A stretch of 64,000 nt of DNA from Escherichia phage vB_EcoM_005: the sequence record MK295203. One strand, written 5' to 3'. Positions 2,847 to 62,614 of the stretch are shown piece after piece (positions within the stretch are counted from its first letter, which is position 1; every line of letters begins with the position of its first letter). A model generated the notes under the pieces. That model did not search any database. It saw nothing but the letters and a program-made list of their open reading frames with translations, and was not told where the DNA came from. Position numbers and translations under genes: made by a program.

Positions 2847-3563
2847 TTAAGAAATTCGTGATGCTGCGATTGCAGACAGGTCCGCGAAGGACAGGGTAGG
2901 CTTAGCGCCTTTTTCTTCAACTGCTTCTGAAATGTAATTCAGTGCCGCAGCATCGTCTACATTTTTATTTATAGCGGCTTCGGTGATTGGGTTTTCAACG
3001 TCAGTTTCAGTCAGGTCTTTAGTTGCTTCCGTAACAGCAACTTCACGCTGTACGTAATTAATATACGCGTCGCGCTTACCAACTTCTTCGAACAGACGAG
3101 CGGTTTCATCTTTCTGCTCTTGGAGTTCTTCTTCCATTTCAGCAACAACATCTACTGCTTCTTCTGGAACAACCACATTGTGTTCAACAAACAGTTCTTT
3201 CATACCCATCAACATGGATTCGAACAGTTCGGCTTTAATACCTTTATCAACAGCCAGCTGGTTTTCAGCCATCCATTCTTTAGCAACGTGGTCAAGGAAA
3301 CGACCGGCAGCTTCTTGGATTTTCTTATCGGCTTTTTCTTCAGCTTCTTCTTTATTTTTCTCTACTTCTTCTTCCGCTTTTTCAGCGATTTTAGCGATGT
3401 GAGATTCAGCCAGTTTCACGGCGTGTTGCTTGACGGTAGCTTCGAATACAGTGCCGAAAGTTTCTTTTGCTTCCGGAGAAATATTAACTGATTCGAAAAT
3501 ACTATCAAGAGCAACGGAAGCATCAATATTCTGTGCTTCGGCGATCAGTTGTTCTTTAAGCAT
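2847..3563 (-). CDS. 22: prohead scaffold protein gp22
   Basis: 238-aa acidic coiled-coil protein MLKEQLIAEAQ...; position between 21 and 23. Confidence 0.85.
   Translation of the reverse strand: MLKEQLIAEAQNIDASVALDSIFESVNISPEAKETFGTVFEATVKQHAVKLAESHIAKIAEKAEEEVEKNKEEAEEKADKKIQEAAGRFLDHVAKEWMAENQLAVDKGIKAELFESMLMGMKELFVEHNVVVPEEAVDVVAEMEEELQEQKDETARLFEEVGKRDAYINYVQREVAVTEATKDLTETDVENPITEAAINKNVDDAAALNYISEAVEEKGAKPTLSFADLSAIAASRIS
2966..2973 (-). promoter_or_regulatory. possible late promoter TATAAATA
   Basis: Forward TATTTATA = minus-strand TATAAATA, about 140 nt upstream of gene 23 start. Confidence 0.3.
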
Positions 3564-6557: not shown

Positions 6558-7139
6558 TCATTCATTTTCATGTTTGTGATAACGTGTTATAGCCGAACGA
6601 GTTGATTCAACACCACAGATAGGGCAAATCATCCTTGGCTGATTAATCTTTTTGCCTTTAGCCGGATGTTCTTTACCAAACATCGGATTACCTTCACCAG
6701 ACATAGCTTTGGCTTGGTCTGGTCGCTTACGTCCTTTTAGAGCTTTAGAATGTTCAGGCCTCTTTTTACCTAACCTACAATCTCTTTGTAGCTGTTTGGC
6801 ATGTTCACTCATTGGAATCCCTTTACGAGACATTCCAAAGAACCCGTCAGGCTGAGCTAATGACATATTTATATAGTTTTTAGATTTAACTACATTATAC
6901 TTTATTTGAAGCTCTTTCTCAGCTATACGAGCTTCTTTATCGGTTTCAAATAAAGATAAAATTCTGGTTTTGAAAAGGTGCGGATTTTCTTTACGTTCTA
7001 GATTCCAAATCTTTTTATATGCTTGGGATAATACAGAACCATTATATCCTTCTTTGAGAATCCTTTCAACGTATGTTGAGCCAATATAACGACGGGGTAG
7101 TTTAGACCCCGTGTATATGGTTAAGTAAGTACAATACAT
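6558..7139 (-). CDS. GIY-YIG homing endonuclease with C-terminal zinc finger
   Basis: TIYTGSKLPRRYIGSTY N-terminal motifs, repeated basic H-x-AK segments, C-terminal CPICG...H; free-standing between genes 20 and 19. Confidence 0.7.
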   Translation of the reverse strand: MYCTYLTIYTGSKLPRRYIGSTYVERILKEGYNGSVLSQAYKKIWNLERKENPHLFKTRILSLFETDKEARIAEKELQIKYNVVKSKNYINMSLAQPDGFFGMSRKGIPMSEHAKQLQRDCRLGKKRPEHSKALKGRKRPDQAKAMSGEGNPMFGKEHPAKGKKINQPRMICPICGVESTRSAITRYHKHENE

Positions 7140-7169
7140 TCTAAACTCCTTGACTTCATTGTTTGAATG

Positions 7170-7177
7170 TATTTATA
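7170..7177 (-). promoter_or_regulatory. late promoter TATAAATA for HEG 6558..7139
   Basis: Minus-strand TATAAATA about 30 nt upstream of the HEG ATG. Confidence 0.4.
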
Positions 7178-7206
7178 CTATCATAATTTGCTATAAAAGT
7201 AAAAAC

Positions 7207-7698: not shown

Positions 7699-7701
7699 AA
7701 G

Positions 7702-8385
7702 TTAGTGTTTCCTATCATATTCTTCAATTAAATGGAATAGCATATCTAAATCTATACTATTTTTAGAATCTTTACTTCGATTCTTTTCCCAAGGAATCAT
7801 TTCTAGATTGCAAATGTGTCCTATTATTTCGGGAGGGACGCCATTTTCAAATCCATATTTGATAGATACCCTATGGTCTAATTGATAAGCTCCTTTAACA
7901 CCACATATCCCGCTTAGATGTCTATTTGGTAGATTATCAACTTCTTCTTTAAAAGTCTTATTAGTAAAAGACCTCACTGAATAATAATATTTATTACGTT
8001 CAGATTTGTTAGGATTCCATCTTCCGTTTTTAGGTCCTGAACAAGCTTCAATCTTTATACCTTTTTTAGACTTAGAAATTTTAGGCCCTTTGGTTTTACG
8101 GATTTTTATGCCTTCATCAGAATTCCAATATTCTTTTCTTGTTTCTGAATAGACTTCCCAACGATGCTCTTTACAGAACTTAGAATTGGTTTCATTAAGT
8201 CGCCCTTTTGTTACAGTATAATAAATGCCACATTTATCACATTTACACGTAACAGCCATTTTTCCAGGACAGTCTTCTAATTTTATTAAATGGGAGCTTC
8301 CACTTTTAACTTGATATCCAAGATTTTTAAAAGCAGAAACATTGCGATTCGTTATAGGTATTTCAAATAGAGTATTAGTAATCAT
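7702..8385 (-). CDS. HNH homing endonuclease (mob-like)
   Basis: C-terminal YQLDHRVSIKYGFENG...HICNLEMIPWEKNRSKD HNH motif, cysteine-rich N-terminus; inserted between genes 19 and 18. Confidence 0.7.
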   Translation of the reverse strand: MITNTLFEIPITNRNVSAFKNLGYQVKSGSSHLIKLEDCPGKMAVTCKCDKCGIYYTVTKGRLNETNSKFCKEHRWEVYSETRKEYWNSDEGIKIRKTKGPKISKSKKGIKIEACSGPKNGRWNPNKSERNKYYYSVRSFTNKTFKEEVDNLPNRHLSGICGVKGAYQLDHRVSIKYGFENGVPPEIIGHICNLEMIPWEKNRSKDSKNSIDLDMLFHLIEEYDRKH

Positions 8386-8407
8386 ACTTATATTTATATA
8401 CCAGAAA

Positions 8408-8436
8408 GTCGCAGGATTGCGCCTGCGACGTTTTTA
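8408..8436. terminator. terminator-like hairpin in 18/19 intergenic region
   Basis: GTCGCAGG-ATTGCG-CCTGCGAC hairpin followed by GTTTTTA; strand assignment ambiguous. Confidence 0.35.
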
Positions 8437-14204: not shown

Positions 14205-14908
14205 TTAATCATCTAAAAAAGCATCATCAAATGCTGTAGGAGGAGCATCTTCTCCTCGTCCATTAATTACAACATAAGGATGTACGAATTCAGCCGCTTC
14301 GGCATTAATCTCATTGACCTCTTCGTATTGAATGTCGGAGATATCAGCCAACCCGTCGATATTCTTAACAGGCATTAAATCAAGCTCACTGAATTCAGGA
14401 ATATTAATACCTTCATTTCTCTGTAATTCAGGACGAAGTTCTTCACCATTGTAAATGAACTTGGTAGCGGTAATTCGACGCTGGACGTTAGCACCTACTT
14501 GATAGAATGGGTCGTAAGGTTGTACCCAGTTAATTTCGAATAGGCTTATTATCCATTGGGAAATAAATCAAGTCGCCTGAAACAGGTTCAGTGCCATTGC
14601 ATTGATGTTTAAAAAGGTTAGGGTTAATTGTGATTGTTACTTCATCATTAACCATCATACCGAACTTACTGAAAGCCTATTCGGTCATTGGCATTTAACA
14701 TATTCACGTGGTATATAATAAAGCTCAATACCACGCATTTGAATAGACTCAGCAACTAAAGCATCAGCCAATGTTTGGGTATTCTCATGCTTGTAATGGT
14801 CGCCATTGGGTCATTGACAAAGGGATTGAGAATTTCGGCTTCGTTCGTATTAGCGTAACCTGTATTATTTTCTAGTTTGGCGAAAAGACTAGAATCAAAT
14901 GTCGACAT
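14205..14908 (-). CDS. 14: neck protein gp14 (multiple frameshifts; not translatable as one ORF)
   Basis: gp14-like segments lie in three frames: [23 protein letters not shown]..., [64 protein letters not shown]...; span of 704 nt is not a multiple of 3. Confidence 0.7.
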
Positions 14909-15521
14909 AACTCCACTCCTTCCATTTAGGTTTATCATTCTTTATTCTATTAATAACTGCGCTTTTGACTATACCAAAATACTCGGCGCATTCTTTACCT
15001 GTCGAGAATACCATTTCTCCGACTCTAACTGCTCTGGCCGCAGGATTTTTACTACCGGTAAAATCTGGGTGTTTCACACGCGTCCACATTAATGCGGTAG
15101 ATTCTTTTCTACGCTTTAGCCCTTCTTCAGTCCATTCTCTTGATTTTGCCGCCTCTGACATTCTTTTTCTTGATTCTATAGAACGGGTTTTACCTATATT
15201 AGGGTTATCTTTAGGATTGTAATAAGAAGGACCACCTTGTCCTCCTTTTACCAAATTAACACACTGAGCAAAATCTTCTTTAAGAATATCGACTAAAAGT
15301 TCTTCGGCTTCCTTTAATAATTCCGGATTACCGAAATCTTTCGACCATAATACCTGTTTTATACAGTTTCGTCCATATTTTTTCTTAGCATTCGAAATAT
15401 ACGTTCCTGAGCCAACGTATGAATCCAGCTTTGGATTAGATTTATCCGAATGTCTTTTACCGCCATAAATTTTTAATCCGTCCGACGTTTCAAACTCAGT
15501 CACGTATAATCTATAAAACAT
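14895..15521 (-). CDS. GIY-YIG homing endonuclease inserted between genes 13 and 14
   Basis: [10 protein letters not shown]...YVGSG motifs, C-terminal HTH; 3' end overlaps gene 14 start; ORF track fuses it to an upstream gene-14 fragment (14895..15668). Confidence 0.75.
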
Positions 15522-15568
15522 AATTATCCAATTAAAATAGGTGTTGGTGGGTCGAGTAAATCTAATTC
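15519..15568. repeat. 50-bp direct repeat, copy 1 (copy of gene 13 3' end)
   Basis: Identical 50-mer CATAATTATCCAATTAAAATAGGTGTTGGTGGGTCGAGTAAATCTAATTC also at 15666-15715. Confidence 0.85.
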
Positions 15569-15572
15569 GAAA

Positions 15573-15668
15573 GTTGACGAAAGGGTTCATTATTTCAGTT
15601 TCGTTCGTGTTAGCATAGCCAGTATTATCTTCTAGCTTAGCGAATAAACTCGAATCGAAAGTAGCCAT
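15573..15668 (-). other. duplicated, diverged 5' fragment of gene 14 (32 codons)
   Basis: [32 protein letters not shown], about 78% nt identical to the real gene 14 start at 14908; reads in frame into the HEG. Confidence 0.6.
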
Positions 15669-16893: not shown

Positions 16894-19107
16894 TTATGGT
16901 GTTGGGGTTAAAGTCACAAAATCTGACAATAATACCCATGCATTATCAACAAGAACATACGGAAGTCCATCAGCAACTGGAGCCGCTGGCGGACGTTTAC
17001 CAAGTTCAGTTTCTAGTGCAGTGATTTTAGCTTCGGCTGCAGTTAAACGAGTAGTTAATCCTGCCACTTTACCTGATTCAACTTCAACAACACCTAAACG
17101 GGTATCAATAGCCGCTACTTTATCGGATTCACCCTTAACTTCAGCCAATCCAGATTTAAGTGTTACTATATCACCTTCTGCAGTGCCAAGGCGGGTATTA
17201 ATACCTGCTACCTTATCAGATTCGACTTTAACAGCGGCAAGTCCTGTTTCTAAAGTGGTGATTTTACCTTCTGCTGTAGTAACTCTAGTTGTTAAAGGAG
17301 CAATTTTGGCAGTATCAACTTTAATTGCGTTAATTTCACCTTCAGTAGAAGAAACTCGGCCAGTTAAAGAAACGATATCGCCTTTGTTCTTGGTGATATC
17401 CGCTTTAATAGGGGTCAACTGGTTTTCTAAATCGGTTACATCTAAAGCCAGTGCAGTAACATCGTCATCAGTAGTATCTGTCTTAGTTTCAAGAGCAGCA
17501 ATTTTACCGTTAATGGTTACATCACTAGATTCAAGTGCTGTTAAACGACCGTCCTGTTCAACGTCTTTAGCCTTTATAGTAACGATATCTGCTTTAATCT
17601 CACCAACCGAAGTGTTTAATGCACCGGTACGAGTATCAAGAGAAGAAATTGAGGTATCATTATCATCGACTCTAGAAGTTAAAGCGGCCACTTTACCGTT
17701 GGTAACAACCAAATCAGCCTTAACAGATTCTATTTCCGTAGAGCTATTGAGAACCTCTGTCCAAGTAGCATTGCGGCGTGCATAAAGCTTACCATCGGAA
17801 GGGGCATCATTCAACTTACCTAACATCTGGGTTTCTAAAGAAGTAACCGCGTTAATAAGACCACGTTCTTCTACAGTAGTACCGTTAGGGTTGGTCCCGT
17901 CAACCTTATTGGTGAGTTTAAGTAAAGTACCCTTAATACCGGATTGGTTATTTCCAATTTCTACTTGAATATCCTGGATAGATGAAGTAGATTGGTTTGC
18001 TTGGATAATAACGTCATTTAAACGCTTATTAATGGTCCCAGCTGCCGGAGATACTTCACTACCTAAACGGCGGTTGATATCAGTAACTTGGAAACGTAAG
18101 CCATCACTTGAACTAACACCCACTATGGTTTTAAGGTCATTTACATCGGTGCGAAGACCGCTTAAACGTCCATTAATAGAAGTAGGAGTTGATTCAGAAC
18201 CTATTTGGATTTCAATTGATGTTACACGAGGTTTTAAATCAACGTTGACTGAATTTTCTAGGGTAAGAGTTTTGCTTTCTAAAGTAGTTACTCGGTCCTT
18301 TATAGGCATACCGGAGAAATCAATATTGGTCTTAATTTCGTCGATAGACGTATTAAAATTAATTGCCGCCGTTTCTAATGCTGAAATTCGGGTATAAGCA
18401 GGTTGTTTACCTACCGTATCAGAATGCGGGCCAAGTTCAGCACGAATTTCATTTAATTTAATACCTAATTGCCCGACGTCAGAATCTTCATAATTCCTTT
18501 CAAGGGTATCAATGCGAAGACGATGGTCGACCAATTCAGTGGTATTATCAATGATGCGACGTTTCATACCGGTGGCTTCGCTGGTTTCACCTGGAGGCAA
18601 TGGATTGCCATTTATATCCTGGTTTTCATAATGACCTATTTCGGTTTTAAGAAGAACAATATTTTCACGTACAGTTAAATATGGGCCATCTTGTAAAGGG
18701 TCATGGTAACCAACGTCTTCACGCAAGTAATCAAAATTGGTGGTTAACTCATCCAATTTTCCTGTTGTTTCTGAAGTAACCTTTTTAAGGTCTACGATAT
18801 CAACACGGTTTTTCTCAATTTGTTGGATGACGGAAATATCCGTAGCCATTTCTAAGGCATCATTGATATTATTAACGTTTTCTACCAGTTCGTTAACTTT
18901 ATCTGCGGTTTTCAAATCATTCGCATCAAGAGCTTCAACGTTTTTCTGAACTCCTAAAGCAGCAGCGTTCAAATTACCTTCATTGCCGTATTTTGTTTTT
19001 GCTGCAGACATACAATCACCCTCGCGTATCCATTGGATACGCTTTTGAGGAGCATCAGGTACGCCGTCAACAAATGGTAACTCACTAAGTTCCAATTTGT
19101 TAATCAT
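16894..19107 (-). CDS. wac: fibritin (whisker antigen control) with extended coiled coil
   Basis: MINKLELSELPFVDGVPDAPQ... N-terminus like T4 wac, long repetitive coiled-coil segments; 737 aa versus 487 in T4 as recalled. Confidence 0.85.
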   Translation of the reverse strand: MINKLELSELPFVDGVPDAPQKRIQWIREGDCMSAAKTKYGNEGNLNAAALGVQKNVEALDANDLKTADKVNELVENVNNINDALEMATDISVIQQIEKNRVDIVDLKKVTSETTGKLDELTTNFDYLREDVGYHDPLQDGPYLTVRENIVLLKTEIGHYENQDINGNPLPPGETSEATGMKRRIIDNTTELVDHRLRIDTLERNYEDSDVGQLGIKLNEIRAELGPHSDTVGKQPAYTRISALETAAINFNTSIDEIKTNIDFSGMPIKDRVTTLESKTLTLENSVNVDLKPRVTSIEIQIGSESTPTSINGRLSGLRTDVNDLKTIVGVSSSDGLRFQVTDINRRLGSEVSPAAGTINKRLNDVIIQANQSTSSIQDIQVEIGNNQSGIKGTLLKLTNKVDGTNPNGTTVEERGLINAVTSLETQMLGKLNDAPSDGKLYARRNATWTEVLNSSTEIESVKADLVVTNGKVAALTSRVDDNDTSISSLDTRTGALNTSVGEIKADIVTIKAKDVEQDGRLTALESSDVTINGKIAALETKTDTTDDDVTALALDVTDLENQLTPIKADITKNKGDIVSLTGRVSSTEGEINAIKVDTAKIAPLTTRVTTAEGKITTLETGLAAVKVESDKVAGINTRLGTAEGDIVTLKSGLAEVKGESDKVAAIDTRLGVVEVESGKVAGLTTRLTAAEAKITALETELGKRPPAAPVADGLPYVLVDNAWVLLSDFVTLTPTP

Positions 19108-22716: not shown

Positions 22717-23477
22717 TATACTGGAACTCCAATAGTTTGGGTTTCTACGACCTTAATTGCAAGCCTCATAGGATTGACAGAAGAAGCGGTCGCGATAATA
22801 TAGTTTGATGTATCGAATTTAAAATCTAGGGAATAAATTTCGTCATCATCTGAAGTTTGTCCACGTTTAATAACAGCGTATTCGGTGGAATAAATCTTTC
22901 TAGCTTGGTTGTCGATAAACACAAGGTATTCTGAAGCTTTGTAAATGGTTTCGTTGGCATTCACTGCCGTAACTAAAAGTTTGACCAATGAATACTGGCC
23001 AGAATAAACCACTGGAATATCACGAGCTACAGAAGATATATTATATGTCTTATTTAATGGAACTCGTTTATCACCAAACATACTTTCAATTGAATAATCC
23101 CATACTGCAACGCCGTTTGTATCCGATACACACCATAAAAGAACTCGTGTATAAGGTGTTACGATACGCAAAGTCGAAGTTGAATGGCTTGCAAAAGTAT
23201 CCAATATACGGATTTCAAGATAATTAGTGGAAGAAATACTCCCGTTAGAGTTGATAATCTCGATTCCTTCACCGACTGCACCTTTTACAGTGGTTAATAG
23301 TAATTTCTGACCTGTTAATTCGCCTGTTAAAGCAGTTTTACGTTGGTCACCGAAAGTATTATAAATGTTGTTTAAGTCAGTGTTCAGTTTAACACCGCCG
23401 TCATAAAGAATGTCGCCGGTGCTGGCATTACCAATTTCACCGACGTCAATTAGTTCTTTACCAGTTTGCTTAATCAT
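22716..23477 (-). CDS. 9: baseplate wedge / long tail fiber attachment protein gp9
   Basis: ...KELIDVGEIGNASTGDILYDGG...FGDQRK...FINSNGSIS... like T4 gp9; 253 aa versus about 288. Confidence 0.85.
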   Translation of the reverse strand: MIKQTGKELIDVGEIGNASTGDILYDGGVKLNTDLNNIYNTFGDQRKTALTGELTGQKLLLTTVKGAVGEGIEIINSNGSISSTNYLEIRILDTFASHSTSTLRIVTPYTRVLLWCVSDTNGVAVWDYSIESMFGDKRVPLNKTYNISSVARDIPVVYSGQYSLVKLLVTAVNANETIYKASEYLVFIDNQARKIYSTEYAVIKRGQTSDDDEIYSLDFKFDTSNYIIATASSVNPMRLAIKVVETQTIGVPV

Positions 23478-23539: not shown

Positions 23540-24445
23540 TTAGAATTCGAAGATAATGTTAATTTCTTCTGTTTGGTCCATGGAACGAATAACCGGAGGA
23601 CGGTTTTCCATATAAATCATTTCACCTGAGTGGCGGGAGAGGTCTATAACATCATAGTACTCTTTTTCGGCTTTAATGATCGGATCGGATGGGTGAGCTT
23701 TAGCTTCTAACGGGTTAGAAATTATCGAAAGCTGTCTAAATCCTTTGTTACCAGGCAGACTAAATTCAGGGAAGTAAACTGAATCTAAGAATGCTTTAAA
23801 ACGAATGGTATTGCCTTTAATACGATAAATCAATCCATAATCGTCTTGCTGCCAAGTAAGGTTATTCTCGTATCCCCAACGTTCTGGGTCTTCGGCAATT
23901 TCTTCCGGCCATGGAACCACGATATATTCATTAGTGCAACGGTTGATACTTACATCAGGTGGAATCTCATACAAATATTCCCAGGTACACTCGGTTTTAT
24001 TATCAAGGGACAAAATAGAACATGTACCTGAGTCAGGAATATCTACACAACGATAAACCATCCAACCTGCACCAACATCAGTACGGTTTTGAGGTTGGCT
24101 ATTCGCCACTACAATTTCACCAATCTGGAAAGTAAACGGGTTAGGATAAGAGGTATCGCCCCAGTCTTTGCGTGGGACAACACAATCCAACATGCTCTTA
24201 TAAACCTTAACACAACCCATCATGTTTGCCCAGACGTCTTCTACGCCTTCAGAATCATCTACAGGATATGGTGGGGCAAAGCCTGGGTCGTTTTCGTTAT
24301 CGGCCCATGGTCGGGCCCTTCCGAAAGATACATACATAGTGTTCTGGTCTTCACCATCACCTATTGTTCTGTAAAAGTTGTACATTTTTTCCGTTCTAAA
24401 TTTTGAAGTAACAATAGAACGATAAACTACTGTAGAATTAATCAT
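23540..24445 (-). CDS. 8: baseplate wedge protein gp8
   Basis: ...YRSIVTSKFRTEKM...RCTNEYIVVPWPEE...HSGEMIYMENRPP... matches T4 gp8; 301 aa versus about 334. Confidence 0.9.
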   Translation of the reverse strand: MINSTVVYRSIVTSKFRTEKMYNFYRTIGDGEDQNTMYVSFGRARPWADNENDPGFAPPYPVDDSEGVEDVWANMMGCVKVYKSMLDCVVPRKDWGDTSYPNPFTFQIGEIVVANSQPQNRTDVGAGWMVYRCVDIPDSGTCSILSLDNKTECTWEYLYEIPPDVSINRCTNEYIVVPWPEEIAEDPERWGYENNLTWQQDDYGLIYRIKGNTIRFKAFLDSVYFPEFSLPGNKGFRQLSIISNPLEAKAHPSDPIIKAEKEYYDVIDLSRHSGEMIYMENRPPVIRSMDQTEEINIIFEF

Positions 24446-24503
24446 TAATTTTTACCTGAGGGGCAAAGGTCACAGCACTTTGGTCAAACAAAATGCGCAT
24501 AGA

Positions 24504-27170
24504 CTAATCGGCAGGAATATCAAACGGTTCTCCTGCTTTAGGTCCAACGTTGTACATTGGAGCACCTGTACGAGGGTCTCGTTCTATATTACCATCAAAA
24601 CCTATTACAGCAACTCTATCATACCATTCAGATGGCAAACCTGAGTCCCATTTATAGTTCTTAAGGATATTAATAATAGTTTCTGTATGTTTTAGCGTTA
24701 AACCAACGTTAACAAACATAGAAAGCAAAGTTATACCTACAAAGCCGAAACCTACTGGATGAACAAATCTCAAAACATCTTTGCGATAACGAGAGGTAGG
24801 GAGATTAGACTTAATAGTCATCACATAATAAGAACGGTTACGGTTGATATAGTCGATATTGTTACTCAAAAGCTCTTTACCACGTACACCCTGAACAATC
24901 ATACCCTTGAACGAAGTACGTTCAGATTTAATTTCCTGTCCGACTATAAAACGACCTAAAAGGTTATGAATGGTTAAACGCCATTGCAGTTTACCATCTT
25001 TGTAATTTCGTTCTATATAAGTAACATTACTACGACCCGTAGGAGTATAAATCGTTTGGCCTACGATATCTTCACTGATATTGTCGGATTCTACGATGAT
25101 ATCATATTCGATAGAGTTCTTGGACTCGATATCAATTTCGACATCTTCGTTGTAAAGCAATTTAAACAGGAACTTATAAGAAGCTTCGGTACCTTTTGTA
25201 GACCAAAAATCGCTTTGGCGTGCCTGGAAAAAACGAACAACTTCATCGCGTTTTTCCTTTGACAAATAGATATTACGCTTATAGATTTCCGACCACAAAT
25301 ATTCCCATGAATCTTCTTCACGCGGATATTGGTTACGAATAAGATTCAACAAATTATTATAGTGCGTACCTGAGCCATCACTAATAAATTGGAGATAGTA
25401 TTCACAGAATTTTTCAAAGTTGGTATCTTGAAGCAAATAACTATCTGGAATCATTTTAACCAGTAAAGGTTGGAGGTCTGGGTCCTGCTCACCAACTTCC
25501 TCTTTAGGCTTCCATGGGATTTCATGTTCTTGGTTTTGCAATTCTGCCGTAAACATAATTTCTTTAGGCTTCCAAATAACACGGACTTCATCACGCACAC
25601 GATAGTCAAATTCAAAATATCCAACCAATTCACCCGTAGATTTGTGAATCATCATTCCGGAAGAATATTTCTTAAAGCCGTTAAATTCTATATTAGGAGA
25701 CGTGACTTTACAAAAACCTTTATTCCAAATCTCGTGAACAATACGTTCAGGTGAAGAACCACTGTTCAGGTCGATAATTTTCTGATATAAAGCATCATTA
25801 TAAACAACCATCGCATGGTCGCCGGTAGTAATCCATGAACGGGTTCCATCACGACGGGACCAACTAAAGAATGGTTCGGCATAATAAGCCATACGTCCAG
25901 GTTTAAATTCTTTGAAATCAGATTTAGAGTTAGACCTAAAACTCATCATCAAATAATGTTTATCATGAATCCATTGTTCATCTTTAACATATTTAACGGC
26001 TGAAGTGACAATTTCAGGATATTCCAAAGGAAGTTCAGAATCAACCTCTACTTCATATCTAAAGTTGCTCGAACTGAAAAATAATTCCTCTCCATCGGTA
26101 GACATGCTGGTATATCCATGCTCTATACGACGACGTTCTTCTTCAGTGTTTCCAAATACACGAGTCCATGTATCGGCTGAAGTGTCTAACCAATAAACAC
26201 CTTTAGATTCGGAATCAACCACATTGGATTCGACTGTAGGGTCCATTTTTTCTTCTTTAACTTCACCTGTAATTAAAGCAAATGTATGGCCTTGGATAGA
26301 ATCTAATTTATAACAAACAGCTTTAGGGTTCCCTGTGATAGTTGAATATCCGCTTTCAAATATCTTCTCTCCATAAGTCGGAGAACTAGGGTCGGTGTCT
26401 ATAGGGGCTTCAGATGTTTTTGCTTTATAAACTCTGTCTCTACCAGCAACATAAATGAATTCATCAGATGCGCACATGGCCTCGGCAATAGTAGAAATAG
26501 GTAAAGGAAGCTTTGCATATGAACCAAATATTTCGATTTCAAATGGAAGGTCGATATCGCTACCTATTTTAGCAAAAGTTACATCCTGGGAACTAAATCT
26601 AACGTCATCAGCAGACCAACGAATATCACTTGATTTACGTCCGTAAAATATTTGGTCATAACCTAGAACATAAGTGGTCGTGTCGGTTTGGTAATGTACC
26701 GTACGTGAAACAGGGTTACCTACTCGGTCATTAAACAAACGGATATAATGCCAGTTCTGCCCTTTATCATTAGAAACCTTAGCGGTGCTTTGGAATCTTT
26801 CTAAAAGGTAAAGTACACCGCCAAGTTCCATTAAAATAGAACGTTTAGGGTCTTTACAAACTGCTTGGATGCTTCCTTGGATTTCATGGAAACGGTCTGC
26901 TTTTAAAACATAATTTGATATAGATGACAAATGCGAATATGCAGGGGTAAAGTTAAAATCTTCACTCATCAAAGAAGCCATAATGGCGTCAGTATTAAAG
27001 TTCACATAATTCTGATTATTTTTTGTGAATTTTTCTTCAATAAATTTATTAGACAAAGTGAATTCGCGCATATGCTCAAATGTATATGCGTTGGTAGAGA
27101 AAGTTTCAAATTCTTCAGTGTAAACCCATTCAGACTGCTCAAACCCCTGGGCAGCTACCGCAACTCTCAT
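24504..27170 (-). CDS. 7: baseplate wedge protein gp7 (start missing, C-terminus frameshifted)
   Basis: Longest ATG-initiated ORF; gp7 homology continues upstream to about 27284 (...LGYTPNNEWF...) with no start codon; C-terminal ...FAPQVKIND lies in another frame at 24443-24500. Confidence 0.85.
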   Translation of the reverse strand: MRVAVAAQGFEQSEWVYTEEFETFSTNAYTFEHMREFTLSNKFIEEKFTKNNQNYVNFNTDAIMASLMSEDFNFTPAYSHLSSISNYVLKADRFHEIQGSIQAVCKDPKRSILMELGGVLYLLERFQSTAKVSNDKGQNWHYIRLFNDRVGNPVSRTVHYQTDTTTYVLGYDQIFYGRKSSDIRWSADDVRFSSQDVTFAKIGSDIDLPFEIEIFGSYAKLPLPISTIAEAMCASDEFIYVAGRDRVYKAKTSEAPIDTDPSSPTYGEKIFESGYSTITGNPKAVCYKLDSIQGHTFALITGEVKEEKMDPTVESNVVDSESKGVYWLDTSADTWTRVFGNTEEERRRIEHGYTSMSTDGEELFFSSSNFRYEVEVDSELPLEYPEIVTSAVKYVKDEQWIHDKHYLMMSFRSNSKSDFKEFKPGRMAYYAEPFFSWSRRDGTRSWITTGDHAMVVYNDALYQKIIDLNSGSSPERIVHEIWNKGFCKVTSPNIEFNGFKKYSSGMMIHKSTGELVGYFEFDYRVRDEVRVIWKPKEIMFTAELQNQEHEIPWKPKEEVGEQDPDLQPLLVKMIPDSYLLQDTNFEKFCEYYLQFISDGSGTHYNNLLNLIRNQYPREEDSWEYLWSEIYKRNIYLSKEKRDEVVRFFQARQSDFWSTKGTEASYKFLFKLLYNEDVEIDIESKNSIEYDIIVESDNISEDIVGQTIYTPTGRSNVTYIERNYKDGKLQWRLTIHNLLGRFIVGQEIKSERTSFKGMIVQGVRGKELLSNNIDYINRNRSYYVMTIKSNLPTSRYRKDVLRFVHPVGFGFVGITLLSMFVNVGLTLKHTETIINILKNYKWDSGLPSEWYDRVAVIGFDGNIERDPRTGAPMYNVGPKAGEPFDIPAD

Positions 27171-27252
27171 TTTATAAAATGAATTAGGAGAAATGAATGC
27201 CTCTTCAAACCATTCGTTATTAGGGGTGTAACCTAAATTTCTCCAAAATAAT

Positions 27253-29121
27253 CTATCGTCGGGAATTTCTACACCCTTCCAACTCTATAGTTGTGTACTG
27301 AGGACGAAGGTCATCTTCAAATACGATTAAAGAACCGTCTTTGGTAAAGATGTTGTCTTGGTCTGGCCCTGCATAAAGTTCAATAGACTGGACTTCAAAA
27401 CGGTCGGAAGTAAGGCCTATTGCGGCGATATCCCAGAAAATAAAGTCTGAGTAATAATCAATTTCGCCAATTAAAGGACCTATAACCATTTTACCATCGC
27501 CTCGTTCGTCTTTATCTGTAGCAACAATACGTACGTTATAAGATTTAATATCATCAGATACGTTTGTTGGGACGAACTCAAATTCACTAGAAGTTACAGA
27601 ACGGTTGGTGTATTGATTATAGTATTTAATACCTGCTTCAGGTGTTTTGAAGAAGTTTAATACCTCGCGAACCATTGTTACCGTAGCCGAAGAGCCAAGG
27701 ATACTGTGGTCTGCATTATCAATATAAGTCAACATTTTAGACTTGGCAAATCCGTGGTTGAATATTTCAACTTCGTTAATATAATAACGGTCTATTTGGG
27801 AAAGGATTTGAGCCGTTAGCCATTGTTCAGATTCCTGTAATTTGTTCAGTGCATATGAAACCTTAATTTTATGTTTCAAGAACAAGTAGTCAGGAGAAAT
27901 AACCGAAGGAGTAATAGGCGCCAAGTTAAATTCTGAAAGATAATTTTGGATATCTTCGCGTTGTACTGCTGTCAAATATAATCCAGATTTAGGCTTAATG
28001 GTAACAAAAGCATAACCAGGTTTATTTGAATCGGTAAAGGTTTGTACTGCTTGTACAATAGACCCAAATCGTTCTGAAACGAATGTATCATAATCTGTAC
28101 CGGTTACAGCACGCATCTGGGCTTCGCGCTTAACTACAGCCAGCTCACGAATACGTTCAATATCTTCAGGGTCACCACCACCATCAGCACCTACATAATC
28201 CGGGTTTTCATCGTAGTTTTCTGTAATTTTTTCAACAGTAATATACGCCAAAGAATCCGCATAACTAAAGTCTACGGCACCGTTAGCAACTTCACCGTCA
28301 GTACGAAGATATTCTATAACAATGGTAGCATCTTTAACAGGTTTTAAACCACCGATATAATTGGCTTCTAATACACCACCTGCAACTGATTTTTCAGCAA
28401 CACCTTCACCAAAGAAGAATTCGGTATTACCATCTACGGTTTCGCGCATATAATAAATGGTAGATGTGCTACCAGCGTGAACCATGGATTTATTAGTCCA
28501 GTTAATCCATTCTGAGCCATCAACATAAAGCTTAACTTCTTGACGGTCGATATCCGGGTCGCGAATAAGAATAGGAGTTTTAGGGTCGTACTTAAGTTCA
28601 GTACGAATAATACGACCTTGTGCTAAAGATACAATAGGGAGATATTGGTTATTAACATCACGTACGGCAATAACGTTTTCCGTGGTAACAAAAGCATACG
28701 GGTCGGCCGAAGTATCACGGGCATAAGCCAAGAATTTAGTACCACGTGGGATACGAATATTCTTTTCATTCAGGGCCTGAGTACAGGTCAACATGATACT
28801 TGTTTTTGCTGCTGATTTAGAACTAGGAAGGTAGCCATTATCCTGTGCAGCCTGGACTACAGAGGAACGCAAGTTAGCGGTACCGATGAAAGATTCATAT
28901 ACGGCGGTGTTAGCAAACTGCTGCATATACAGGGTATTGTAAGCTAACATGTCAATCAGGATATTCATTCGCGAACCTACGAAATCATAATCCTGGAATT
29001 CTTTCTGGCTAGAAAGCCAATCGATAATATTCTTTTTAATCTCTTCAAACGTAGCTCCCACAAATACTTTTGGGATAGCGTTAACGGTTCTTGTTAATTG
29101 GTAATTCGTAGGAGTAGCCAT
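27253..29121 (-). CDS. 6: baseplate wedge protein gp6
   Basis: MATPTNYQLTRTVNAIPKVFVGATF...SMVHAGSTSTIYYMRETVDGNTEF... matches T4 gp6; 622 aa versus about 660. Confidence 0.9.
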   Translation of the reverse strand: MATPTNYQLTRTVNAIPKVFVGATFEEIKKNIIDWLSSQKEFQDYDFVGSRMNILIDMLAYNTLYMQQFANTAVYESFIGTANLRSSVVQAAQDNGYLPSSKSAAKTSIMLTCTQALNEKNIRIPRGTKFLAYARDTSADPYAFVTTENVIAVRDVNNQYLPIVSLAQGRIIRTELKYDPKTPILIRDPDIDRQEVKLYVDGSEWINWTNKSMVHAGSTSTIYYMRETVDGNTEFFFGEGVAEKSVAGGVLEANYIGGLKPVKDATIVIEYLRTDGEVANGAVDFSYADSLAYITVEKITENYDENPDYVGADGGGDPEDIERIRELAVVKREAQMRAVTGTDYDTFVSERFGSIVQAVQTFTDSNKPGYAFVTIKPKSGLYLTAVQREDIQNYLSEFNLAPITPSVISPDYLFLKHKIKVSYALNKLQESEQWLTAQILSQIDRYYINEVEIFNHGFAKSKMLTYIDNADHSILGSSATVTMVREVLNFFKTPEAGIKYYNQYTNRSVTSSEFEFVPTNVSDDIKSYNVRIVATDKDERGDGKMVIGPLIGEIDYYSDFIFWDIAAIGLTSDRFEVQSIELYAGPDQDNIFTKDGSLIVFEDDLRPQYTTIELEGCRNSRR

Positions 29122-29423: not shown

Positions 29424-29980
29424 TATGGCCTCGCATATACATATTCTCTTAATTGGTTAGCCCATTTGCTCCAATTACCCACTATAACTTTGGTATAAAC
29501 CTTAGTAAGGGTTTTTCTTACCGGAGCAGGAGGTGGGTCTGTTTCGCTACCGGCTCTAGAATTACTACCGCCTGAGTTCCCTGTATCACCTCCTGACGAC
29601 TCTTCCTGAAAGTCATAGATTAATGTGACCGTATAAGAAAAAGTCTTCTGGAGATTGCTAGGGGCTTTCCAGAGGTATAATTGAGTGCTCTTGTCCTCTG
29701 GTAAATCTTTCCATGAACCGGCAGTTTTAAATTCATCACCTAATCGGTATTTTAATGCATCCTCAGAGAAACCAAATACTGATTCGTAAGTTCCATATAA
29801 ATGAGCCCCATCAACTGTGATGCCTTCTGTCGGCTCATATTCTGTTATATTTATTTCGACTAATGTTTCGTTTGTTTCTAATTGAGCGGTAAACGTAACA
29901 TCGATAGAGCTTCCTTCCATGGAATCTCCTAAATCAGTGCTCATCGGTAGGATATTAGCCAATGTCAATCCTCGAACCAT
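29423..29980 (-). CDS. 5.1: gene 5.1-like protein (start uncertain)
   Basis: ORF between gene 5 and 5.4; track start at 30004 is TTG; candidate ATGs at 29980 and 29944. Confidence 0.45.
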
Positions 29981-31376
29981 CAATAGTATATTGACCGGAT
30001 GCAATTGAACTCATAGTCGACATAGTTTCAGACCAATTGCCTGCAACAGTCATATCAACGTTTCCATTTACGGACCATTTAACGTTTCCATTTACTGTAT
30101 AGTCATGGTTGCCTTCAACTAATGTTTTTGCATCGCCTTTAACAGTTATATCAGCATTACCCTCGACAAGAATTGTTACGTTTCCTTTAACAATAAGGGT
30201 CCCATCACCTTCTACGGTTTTAGTTTCATTACCACGAATATGATATCCGTCTGCTACTGTCTTGGAAGTTTTGCGACCATCAGGAGCAACTTCTTCATAA
30301 CTACCTGTAGGATGGATTAAACGATAACGTTCTTGCCCTGGAGTGTTATCAAATTCTTGGATATGCCCGCCTTCAGTCTGCATGGTTTGGACATATGGGT
30401 ATTCACCTTTATAACTAGAATCAGGCTCTTTAAAAAGAATCCTTGTATCTTCTGGAGTCCATGGGTCGGCAGGGTCTGAATTTTTAGGGGCTGCAAAGGT
30501 TTGAATCATTCTATACGAACGCCCTTTAAATGACCTTTCTTTAGGGGCCATAATACCGTATGATTCCATGTTACCTGTAAGGATAATCATTGATACCCTT
30601 GATGCACGACCTTTAGTTTGGTTAAACCACACAGAATCACGAGCGGCATCAAATGCTTTCTTATAATCTCCGGCTAACATTGCAGCGAGCATGGTTCTAA
30701 ATTTAGCCAGTCCACCCAATCCCATTTGGAAAGCCATGTTTTCAAGAGCCATTTGTCTTGAACGGTTTTCTTTATTGTAAACTGGCCCTACAACACTATG
30801 CCGACCTATATCGCTTTGGACTTTTTTAAGGTCTTCTTGGAATAATTTAGAAGCCTCGTCCATTGATATTGCACCTGGGTTACCTTTAACTTCTCGTCCT
30901 ACCTGATTAGATAATATTTTGTTTATTCGGTTCATATCTCTAATAGGTTGCGGTGTGATAAGGTGGCCTATACCTATAGTAGGATAACCTTCGGTGTCCC
31001 AATAGTTAATACCCACATCAGTGTTTGCATCTTGTATTACGTTAGAAGTGGCATCATATCCAACTTCACCGCCTCGGTTTAGTGCTGCAGCATCATTACC
31101 TAAATAAAGTGGATATTGACCTGTTGGGTCGCTAAAACCTTCATTAGGATTAGCCTTTTGTCTTGAAGCGGAACCATATGTACCGAGGACAAGCCCGTTT
31201 AATTTCCACTTATCAAGAAAGTGCCCATAAGTACGAAGGCCTTTTACAGGACCTTGGACCTTTTCGTAAGGATGCAAGCCCCAGACACGAACTCGAACGC
31301 GTCCTTGTTGGAGTGGGTCCATACGGTCTTCAACCACCCCTACGAACCAACTGACATTATCAGACATGTTAATCAT
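29955..31376 (-). CDS. 5: baseplate hub / tail-associated lysozyme gp5
   Basis: N-terminal ...WFVGVVEDRMDPLQQGRVRVRV, central T4-lysozyme-like domain (GINYWDTEGYPTIGIGHLI), C-terminal VxGNxxxxV beta-helix repeats. Confidence 0.9.
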   Translation of the reverse strand: MINMSDNVSWFVGVVEDRMDPLQQGRVRVRVWGLHPYEKVQGPVKGLRTYGHFLDKWKLNGLVLGTYGSASRQKANPNEGFSDPTGQYPLYLGNDAAALNRGGEVGYDATSNVIQDANTDVGINYWDTEGYPTIGIGHLITPQPIRDMNRINKILSNQVGREVKGNPGAISMDEASKLFQEDLKKVQSDIGRHSVVGPVYNKENRSRQMALENMAFQMGLGGLAKFRTMLAAMLAGDYKKAFDAARDSVWFNQTKGRASRVSMIILTGNMESYGIMAPKERSFKGRSYRMIQTFAAPKNSDPADPWTPEDTRILFKEPDSSYKGEYPYVQTMQTEGGHIQEFDNTPGQERYRLIHPTGSYEEVAPDGRKTSKTVADGYHIRGNETKTVEGDGTLIVKGNVTILVEGNADITVKGDAKTLVEGNHDYTVNGNVKWSVNGNVDMTVAGNWSETMSTMSSIASGQYTIDGSRIDIG

Positions 31377-55853: not shown

Positions 55854-56207
55854 ATGGTTATCAATACAAGGTGTTCTGTGCTTGCAGGTAGTACTATTTT
55901 CGGCTTAACTGTTGCAGGTGCCGGTATATTGGAGCAGTTCTTTGTATTGAGTACTCCTGTTGGTTTAAGTTTAGGTTTTATTTTAGGACTGGTTACACTG
56001 GCTCTTATTCTGGCGGTAGCTGTTGGTATTGTGTATTGTATAATGAGTTTCTGGGCCTGGTATGATTTACGTAAAGAAGAAAAAGAATGGGAACTAATTA
56101 AAGCTAAACGTGAAGGAAAGGAAATTAAAGAAAATATCGTTATTCAATATATCAAAGCTCGTAAATCTAAGGTCTGTCCGGTAATCCACTTCGAGGACAA
56201 AGAATGA
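55854..56207 (+). CDS. membrane protein (117 aa)
   Basis: Two or three hydrophobic helices then Lys/Glu-rich tail; overlaps next gene by 4 nt. Confidence 0.55.
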   Translation: MVINTRCSVLAGSTIFGLTVAGAGILEQFFVLSTPVGLSLGFILGLVTLALILAVAVGIVYCIMSFWAWYDLRKEEKEWELIKAKREGKEIKENIVIQYIKARKSKVCPVIHFEDKE

Positions 56208-60166: not shown

Positions 60167-60949
60167 ATGAACATTAAAACACGTAAAGAATATTCTCGAT
60201 ATGATTTTGATACCACACGTCGTATCGCTATTGACCGTCTGGCAGACTTTGGCCATATTTGTAATGGTAATTATACTTATGGTGTAGGTCGTAAAGGAAC
60301 TTATATTGGTTCTTTGAACGATTATTGCCGTTGCCCGGCCCACCTGTTTGGTGCAACATTGCGAGCTAATATCAAAGACCTCTTGGCTACAGCAGGGCGT
60401 ATTTCTACGGTTCCTGTTAATATCAAAAATATTAATTTTACAGCTCGTAACCTGGTCATTAATATTTTGGCAGACGGTATTCAAGTTCGTTTCCGTCCTA
60501 CCTCAAAAGGTAATAAAGCCCTTCGTGAAGCATTTGAAACCGTTAATGTTAAACTAACTCGCGAATATCTTTTGTCTTACGCCCCTTATCAATCCCAACA
60601 AAAGGAACCACAAATGGAACGTCGTATCTCTATCTCTACATCTGCGGTATCATGTGACAGCGTAGGCCAGTATGCAGCCTATGACAAATTCAAAACCACC
60701 GCTGTGCCGAGTCCATTCAATTCCAAACCGTATCATTGGAAAATTGCACCTGATAATTCTATGGTGGTTACTAACCCTACGATGAAACCTATCGAGAAGT
60801 ATCATGAGGACTACATCCAGGAATCAATCCACCGTTTAAACGGTCAAATCGAAGATGAGAAAAAGAGTATCCAAGACGTATTGATTCGTATCAAGAACAT
60901 GGAACTCCAGCGTGACAAGCTCCGCGCGGCAGTATTAGCTCTAAAATAA
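60167..60949 (+). CDS. hypothetical protein (260 aa)
   Basis: TAATATG coupling with previous ORF; track starts at upstream ATG 60143. Confidence 0.5.
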   Translation: MNIKTRKEYSRYDFDTTRRIAIDRLADFGHICNGNYTYGVGRKGTYIGSLNDYCRCPAHLFGATLRANIKDLLATAGRISTVPVNIKNINFTARNLVINILADGIQVRFRPTSKGNKALREAFETVNVKLTREYLLSYAPYQSQQKEPQMERRISISTSAVSCDSVGQYAAYDKFKTTAVPSPFNSKPYHWKIAPDNSMVVTNPTMKPIEKYHEDYIQESIHRLNGQIEDEKKSIQDVLIRIKNMELQRDKLRAAVLALK

Positions 60950-62449: not shown

Positions 62450-62614
62450 ATGGATGTGATGCCGGAAAAAGGTGTATTTGATGATGAGAAGATTGCTGAA
62501 CTCCTGGCTTCTCTTGGACGTGAATCTCAGGTAGGTTTGACTATGCCTCAGGTATTTGCTCCGGACGGAACTTCTATTGGTGGCTTTGACCAATTGCGAG
62601 CATATTTCAAATGA
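62450..62614 (+). CDS. nrdC: thioredoxin NrdC, C-terminal fragment only
   Basis: MDVMPEKGVFDDEKIAELLASLGRESQVGLTMPQVFAPDGTSIGGFDQLRAYFK matches the C-terminal part of T4 NrdC; N-terminal CxxC region absent. Confidence 0.6.
   Translation: MDVMPEKGVFDDEKIAELLASLGRESQVGLTMPQVFAPDGTSIGGFDQLRAYFK

Follow-up and report, generated by a model that had tools for sequence, protein, structure and literature searches.

Gene 7 of this phage sequence has lost both of its ends, and the breaks very probably belong to a series of mechanical block drop-outs that runs through the whole window (the entire 64-kb stretch of DNA that was analysed) and arose during assembly or later processing; they would then not be a property of the phage. 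Many events of the same size, at unrelated sites, free of microhomology and absent from relatives are what characterizes mechanical drop-out, and this is the pattern found here. The pattern is uniform, no relative displays it, and the part of gene 7 that is left has kept an intact coding signal. From the sequence we infer that the cause of the gene 7 lesions is technical and that the real phage would carry a normal gp7 of about 1031 aa. As these lesions fall within a window-wide set of 31 events, nothing specific to gene 7 follows from them. An earlier note on this DNA had already described the gene as damaged, and its account stands as far as the missing start, the early stop of the body and the C-terminal remnant behind it are concerned, but neither the frameshift nor the homology boundary that it proposed holds.

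The phage and the remaining body of gene 7

The window belongs to a JS98-like T4-type coliphage (genus Dhakavirus) and is about 96% identical to phage KIT01. Its best nucleotide matches are the Dhakavirus coliphages KIT01, MX01, WG01 and QL01, at approximately 95-96.6% identity; since even the closest reference is only about 96% identical to the parent genome, the position of each junction described below is uncertain by a few bp. The minus strand bears the T4-type baseplate cluster, arranged as gp5, 5.1, 5.4, 6, 7, 8, 9, 10. In KIT01, gp6, gp7, gp8, gp9 and gp10 measure 652, 1031, 334, 286 and 603 aa, as opposed to 622, 888, 301, 253 and 570 aa in the window. All five are therefore shorter in the window and the shortening is not confined to gene 7. 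The phage behind this sequence is an unremarkable Dhakavirus (JS98/WG01/KIT01-like) whose baseplate gene cluster is normal.

The product of gene 7 is reportedly the essential initiator of wedge assembly in T4. What is left of the gene forms one long reading frame:

24507-27275, minus strand: gene 7 body, 923 codons, stop-free

This body represents residues 45-967 of Dhakavirus gp7 and approximately residues 47-968 of the T4 baseplate wedge initiator gp7. When compared with T4 gp7 in baseplate structures (PDB 9F4A, 5HX2, 5IV5, 5IV7), it matches residues 47-968 of 1032 with an E value of 0. Homology across the helical domain, domain V and domain VI, which marks a T4-type gp7, is likewise present in the Pfam matches (Gp7_helical, 1.1e-29; Gp7_5th, 3.9e-48; Gp7_6th, 5.4e-18), the last of which, domain VI, is covered at profile positions 1-49 of 93 only. 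Other traits of such a protein are lacking: the ORF does not reach the full length of about 1017-1060 aa and has neither a start nor a ribosome-binding site of its own directly behind the gp6 stop, and the C-terminal domain VI is incomplete, with two 70-nt blocks missing and an in-frame TAG. As regards the native stop overlapping the gp8 start, the overlap itself is present.

At the protein level the body is 98.7% identical to KIT01 gp7. The codon changes that separate the two comprise 91 synonymous and 12 non-synonymous ones, and third codon positions take 95 of the 108 substitutions. Together with the 923 stop-free codons, this bias points clearly to purifying selection, and the body bears the signature of a working gene and not of a decaying one. 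We also considered a decaying pseudogene, which would be recognized by scattered stops or frameshifts and by a non-synonymous rate nearing the synonymous one; the gene 7 body has neither feature.

The two ends of gene 7

The following features define the 5' end of gene 7 and its border with gene 6:

27253-29121, minus strand: ORF of gp6 (baseplate wedge subunit), 622 aa as against 652 aa in KIT01
27276-27277, minus strand: junction A, at which 173 nt (KIT01 81090-81262) are missing in the alignment to KIT01
27168-27170, minus strand: first remaining start-type codon in the gene 7 frame, an ATG, corresponding to internal Met80 of gp7

The 173 nt lost at junction A (27277/27276) contain the final 15 nt of gene 6, a 27-nt spacer with a GGAG ribosome-binding site and the initial 131 nt of gene 7, and through this loss codons 1-44 of gene 7 are missing. 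The junction is clean, with neither microhomology nor filler. Its flanks are 100% identical in 28 phage records, and the extra 173 nt are present in all of the top matches listed. The earlier remark that the gene lacks its start is thus correct, and it comes down to the absence of a single block that holds the gp6 stop, the Shine-Dalgarno sequence and gp7 codons 1-44. Homology to gp7 had been placed from about T4 residue 57 onwards; it begins further upstream, at window position 27275, corresponding to residue 45 in Dhakavirus gp7 and to approximately residue 45-47 in T4 gp7. This onset precedes the residues WRNLGY by 10-11 codons, which the read-through tail of the gp6 ORF conceals.

In the gene 7 frame, a TAG stands four codons upstream of the start of homology, and from this TAG to the ATG at 27170 we found no ATG, GTG or TTG, which agrees with the claim that no start codon precedes this internal Met. 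The ATG opens an ORF of 888 aa (24504-27170), and no Shine-Dalgarno sequence was found upstream of it.

Gene 6 is affected as well. Its ORF, which matches five Gp6 Pfam domains with gp6_C-domII split, has an internal 99-nt drop-out at 27472, and the native last 4 codons and stop are gone. The end of gp6 at 27253 was read correctly in so far as the ORF does terminate at TAG 27255-27253, but this is not the native stop: the tail reads ...TIELE-GCRNSRR* in the window and ...TIELEPITI* in relatives, the latter being native. Coming from gp6, the reading frame continues out of phase into gene 7 and halts after 7 codons, and the TAG is a fortuitous out-of-frame stop within gene 7 sequence.

The 3' end of gene 7, together with the adjoining gp8, is made up of the following pieces:

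24492-24506, minus strand: in-frame TAG (24506-24504) and the rest of the 13-nt unmatched patch GTCTATGCGCATT (24504-24492), from the alignment to KIT01
24462-24491, minus strand: retained 30-nt piece of gene 7 (LFDQSAVTFA), 100% identical to KIT01 84105-84134
24461, minus strand: junction with a single filler base, C on the minus strand and G on the plus strand
24438-24460, minus strand: native end of gene 7 (..QVKIND, TAA 24440-24438), in frame with the body
23540-24445, minus strand: ORF of gp8, 301 aa instead of 334 aa; a 99-nt drop-out lies at 23985

The body terminates at TAG 24506-24504, in line with the stop that had been located at 24504. Over this region 170 nt of KIT01 (84035-84204) are reduced to 44 nt, a net loss of 126 nt, and the additional 126 nt are present in every top relative. 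The patch GTCTATGCGCATT stands in for the first 70 nt (KIT01 84035-84104, gp7 residues about 968-991), and its first base, joined to the preceding TA, forms the TAG. No copies of the patch were found elsewhere in the window or in the loci fetched from relatives. Its partial likeness, in reverse complement, to the neighbouring deleted sequence seemed to be due to chance. The filler base at 24461 stands in for the second 70 nt (KIT01 84135-84204, gp7 residues about 1002-1025).

Downstream of the body stop lies the C-terminal remnant ...LFDQSAVTFAPQVKIND*, which ends at TAA 24440-24438 and whose end overlaps the gp8 start (ATG 24445-24443). Taken from directly after the TAG, the remnant SMRILFDQSAVTFAPQVKIND* (24503-24438) has a length of 66 nt, equal to 22 codons, and shares its frame with the body. 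The C-terminus had been considered frameshifted; the break is instead a single in-frame TAG within the 13-nt patch, which cuts off an in-frame remnant in a region that has also lost two 70-nt blocks, and the frame is not shifted. The drop-out in gp8 shows the same kind of lesion in the gene neighbouring gene 7.

Block losses across the window and their absence from relatives

The whole window was aligned to KIT01 36-116 kb. This alignment gives 31 block losses in 64 kb, of 85-173 nt each, which add up to 3,384 missing nt (5.0%). Exactly 99 nt net are lost in 20 of the 31 cases, typically through the replacement of 100 nt by 1 nt, and the remaining 11 losses measure 85, 97, 102, 106, 123, 126, 133, 146, 147, 166 and 173 nt. 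The positions are random and their spacing is roughly exponential; they follow no coordinate grid (mod 50, 64, 100 or 128). No microhomology was found at the loss junctions, and no motif is shared among the lost blocks. Wherever a single filler base could be scored, it was G or T on the plus strand (15 of 15 junctions), an outcome with a chance of about 2^-15 if bases were unbiased.

The gene 7 events (173 nt, 70 nt replaced by 13 and 70 nt replaced by 1) are not 99 nt in size, and their probable link to the 99-nt class lies in shared junction features, not in length. Single-base filler occurs at several variable-size events (167 nt to 1, 103 to 1, 107 to 1, 148 to 1 and 134 to 1, as well as the 70 to 1 event of gene 7), and a second event with an unmatched patch is found in gp14, where 105 nt have given way to 20 nt. 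Clean junctions and the G/T filler are thus common to the variable-size events, and the gene 7 lesions are thereby linked to the process behind the other losses. We asked whether the variable-size class could reflect chance overlaps of 100-nt blocks; by our estimate about 2 of these would be expected against 11 observed, so that this was rejected and the process has more than one mode.

The losses strike gp5 (three times), 6, 7, 8, 9, 10, 11, 12 (twice), 13, 14, 18, 22 and 23. Many of these structural genes are essential in T4. Taken literally, a genome with such lesions in essential structural genes could not form particles. The losses in gp11, gp13, gp14 and gp23 are not multiples of 3, and the major capsid gene, gp23, is frameshifted in the window, its ORF being 462 aa long as against 519 aa, with Pfam Gp23 matched at profile positions 1-308 of 376 only. 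Across all events, 24 of 31 losses are multiples of 3; outside the 99-nt class the fraction is 4 of 11, which is the chance level, and selection for reading frame is therefore not visible.

Two further observations, in gp13 and gp14, look like a mixture of alleles. The window contains a 230-nt duplicate within gp13, at 91.7% identity, and a stub of a gp14 allele without a homing endonuclease sits before the allele that has one.

As a control, six natural relatives were put through the same comparison over the gp9-gp24 stretch. They differ only by a length polymorphism in wac and by the presence or absence of homing-endonuclease genes, as compared with 10 drop-outs in the window, and their called genes have normal lengths (gp8 334, gp9 286, gp10 603, gp18 660 and gp23 519 aa).

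The ends of gp7 were followed more widely by tblastn, the queries being the N-terminal 116 aa and the C-terminal 119 aa of KIT01 gp7. The N-terminus is kept in 1,421 of 1,421 and the C-terminus in 1,407 of 1,407 T4-like phage records, all of which cover 80% or more of the query in a single stretch, and the rows sampled are ungapped and reach from Escherichia phages to Acinetobacter and Aeromonas phages. No natural gp7 variant lacking either end was found among these approximately 1,400 records. The best 120 gp7 homologues, from among 5.8 billion proteins, are 1017-1060 aa long, and the closest of these 120 is the gp7 of WG01 (1031 aa, 99% identity). The arrangement that the earlier note had named as speaking against a damaged gene, an intact gp7 of about 1030 aa adjoining the gp6 stop, does not occur in the window; it does occur in the annotated relatives checked, and the other relatives are consistent with it (1017-1060 aa, both ends kept).

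Neither gene 7 junction was seen in the near relatives examined, and exact searches with the gene 6/gene 7 junction or with unique sequence gave no hit in contig collections of viruses, metagenomes and genomes. Megablast of the region against E. coli genomes and plasmids gave no match either. The exact 888-aa gp7, 301-aa gp8 and 737-aa wac products had no match in the protein collection searched, whereas 36 of its blocks do contain the window's intact gp17.

Origin of the lesions and comparison with known systems

The process that we propose would have turned about 70-175 nt, usually exactly 100 nt, of normal Dhakavirus genome into nothing, into one base or, rarely, into a short unmatched patch at each event. 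One such event would span the gene 6/gene 7 boundary, and two would lie in the final 200 nt of gene 7, one of which may have left the patch that contains the TAG. The recurrent size of 99/100 nt suggests either a word size near 99-100 in an assembler or scaffolder, in which case a bug in such a program might be responsible, or the removal of fixed-size (100-nt) blocks during data handling. A de Bruijn graph (k near 99-100) in which SNP "bubbles" collapsed would be a plausible source of sizes of 99 + d; the filler bases are not mostly transitions.

An alternative that we consider improbable accepts the 99-nt class as an artefact but takes the gene 7 lesions as real, for instance as a null or hypomorphic allele on a defective genome in a mixed lysate, complemented by co-infecting wild type. 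The sizes of the gene 7 events do depart from the dominant 99 nt, and the gp13 duplicate and the gp14 allele stub would fit a mixed population. However, 11 events of variable size lie in unrelated genes and share the same clean junctions and G/T filler, including one event of gene 7, and the unmatched patch in gene 7 has a counterpart in gp14. Moreover, the body shows no relaxed selection, neither junction is shared by any relative, and a genome without gp7 could not propagate alone, as this protein is the essential wedge initiator.

It is highly improbable that all 31 deletions are real and that the window represents a decaying, non-functional T4-like genome, be it a defective remnant or a laboratory construct with extensive deletions. 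The deletions are present in the sequence as given, and 24 of the 31 are multiples of 3, but this excess derives entirely from the fixed size of 99, and the other deletions are at chance level. The remaining ORFs are intact and have a strong synonymous bias, unlike the decay of a pseudogene, while the major capsid gene is frameshifted and nothing comparable was found in the collections searched. No biological process is known to us that would excise exactly 100 nt and put a single G or T in their place at 20 or more unrelated sites without microhomology. A related reading, to which we attach very little credence, assumes a real population of heavily deleted, defective T4-like genomes with dozens of deletions near 100 nt, a gene 7 null included, that would be complemented by a wild-type helper and would owe the 99/100-nt size to a precise excision process.

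Hardly any weight can be given to recoding of gene 7, that is read-through or suppression of TAG 24506-24504 with the start bypassed by a gp6-gp7 fusion or by re-initiation: the C-terminal remnant is indeed in frame with the body across the TAG and the gp6 ORF does extend into gene 7 sequence, but gp6 enters out of frame and ends after 7 codons, the TAG sits in a 13-nt patch without counterpart in relatives, every relative checked encodes gp7 in a single uninterrupted ORF that has its own start, the 923 codons hold no other in-frame TAG, and the read-through product would still lack residues 1-44 as well as 48 conserved residues from domain VI. Programmed recoding entails a site conserved in relatives and a downstream frame required for the full-length product; a conserved TAG context or slippery site was found in no independent genome of the collections searched.

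Mechanical drop-out thus being the preferred reading, the value of the finding is one of quality control only. Truncated, shortened or frameshifted genes from this window would have the same trivial cause and should not be taken as biology. This applies to gp5, 6, 7, 8, 9, 10, 11, 12, 13, 14, 18, 22 and 23, to nrdC and the lysozyme gene e, and also to several of the small ORFs. Should the source be a public record, that record would have to be re-assembled.

With regard to known systems, the closest is the gp7 of Dhakavirus itself (WG01 P0001, 1031 aa; KIT01 BBI57507.1, 1031 aa; JS98). The body in the window is 99% identical to WG01 and 98.7% identical to KIT01 over residues 45-967, and the gene order 5-5.1-5.4-6-7-8-9-10 and the 8-nt overlap of genes 7 and 8 are common to both. 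The window differs in that it lacks the ribosome-binding site and codons 1-44 as well as residues about 968-991 and about 1002-1025, and in that it has an in-frame TAG. To T4 gp7 (PDB 5HX2, 5IV5, 5IV7, 9F4A) the body aligns end to end over T4 residues 47-968, whereas the N-terminal 44-46 residues are lacking and domain VI is partial (1-49 of 93). Fixed-length assembly or processing drop-outs form a generic class of sequence artefact. The combination seen here, in which 100 nt give way to one G or T next to a variable class of 70-175 nt and two patches, matched no specific program or pipeline, but the window shares with this class the recurring size, the clean junctions, the random placement, the striking of essential genes and the absence from relatives.

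Block drop-outs and the genes they shorten

Compared with KIT01 and other Dhakavirus phages, the window lacks 31 blocks of DNA (drop-outs), which together amount to 3,384 nt or about 5% of the reconstructed sequence. The net loss is exactly 99 nt in 20 of these, and wherever a single filler base left at the junction could be scored, it reads G or T on the + strand without exception.

Positions of the block drop-outs
1527, 3003-3007, 9414, 14675-14694, 16370/16371, 19202/19203, 19466, 20591
21018, 23298-23299, 23985, 24461-24504, 27276/27277, 27472, 30238-30242, 31005
31230/31231, 37662, 43521, 45143, 47049/47050, 51928, 54139, 55753
55866-55871, 56613/56614, 59012/59013, 60542-60544, 61884, 62453-62455, 62896

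Structural genes with drop-outs
1437-2825, - strand: gene 23 (major capsid), junction at 1527
29955-31376, - strand: gp5 (hub and tail lysozyme), junctions at 31230/31231, 31005 and 30238-30242

The gene 23 drop-out comprises 133 nt and shifts the frame; the ORF encodes 462 aa in the window versus 519 aa, and matches only positions 1-308 of the 376 in the Pfam Gp23 profile. In gp22 there is a 99-nt drop-out at about 3005. The three drop-outs of gp5 (99, 99 and 123 nt) are all in frame and the protein measures 473 aa versus 580 aa; the OB domain and the beta-helix are each partly missing, and the lysozyme domain lacks its start. Judging by homology to T4 lysozyme, the segment with the catalytic Glu (...RDEGLRLKV) would fall within the lysozyme-domain loss.

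Possible mixed alleles around gp13 and gp14

Features of the gp13-gp14 region
16370-16141 and about 16043-15814, - strand: two copies of a 230-nt piece of gp13
15715-15666 and 15568-15519: end of gp13, repeated perfectly over 50 nt
14895-15668, - strand: chimeric ORF of 257 aa

The two gp13 copies are offset by 97 nt in register and share only 91.7% identity; one is KIT01/MX01-like and the other resembles a different allele. The duplicate looks like the alleles of two strains merged into one sequence. The chimeric ORF, which the 50-nt repeat accompanies, begins with the gp14 N-terminus (about 30 residues), taken from the allele in which, as in KIT01, gp13 and gp14 are not separated by a homing endonuclease gene; fused to it is an MX01-like homing endonuclease with I-TevI DNA-binding and NUMOD3 matches. 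The real gp14 follows and carries its own patch event, in which 105 nt are replaced by 20 nt.

An identity step is also found in gp6, where the 195 nt at 27277-27471 (- strand), lying between the 99-nt drop-out of gp6 and the 173-nt drop-out, are 100% identical to KIT01, as against 94-96% in the flanking blocks; this may be ordinary mosaicism.

Insertions and fibritin length

Insertions compared with KIT01, on either side of gp19 and following gp23
7699-8432: ORF 7702-8385, - strand
6564-7204: ORF 6558-7139, - strand
667-1334: ORF 680-1339, + strand

Each of these three insertions (640-730 nt) contains one ORF. The + strand ORF has a weak SegE GIY-YIG match, and a Pfam search of the two - strand ORFs gave no match. 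The insertions are probably natural, of the homing-endonuclease type, and not artefacts.

Fibritin ORF
16894-19107, - strand: fibritin (wac)

The wac product measures 737 aa versus 529 aa in KIT01, and an exact-product look-up found no identical 737-aa product on record. Since wac ranges from 514 to 799 aa among relatives, its length in the window represents natural polymorphism.
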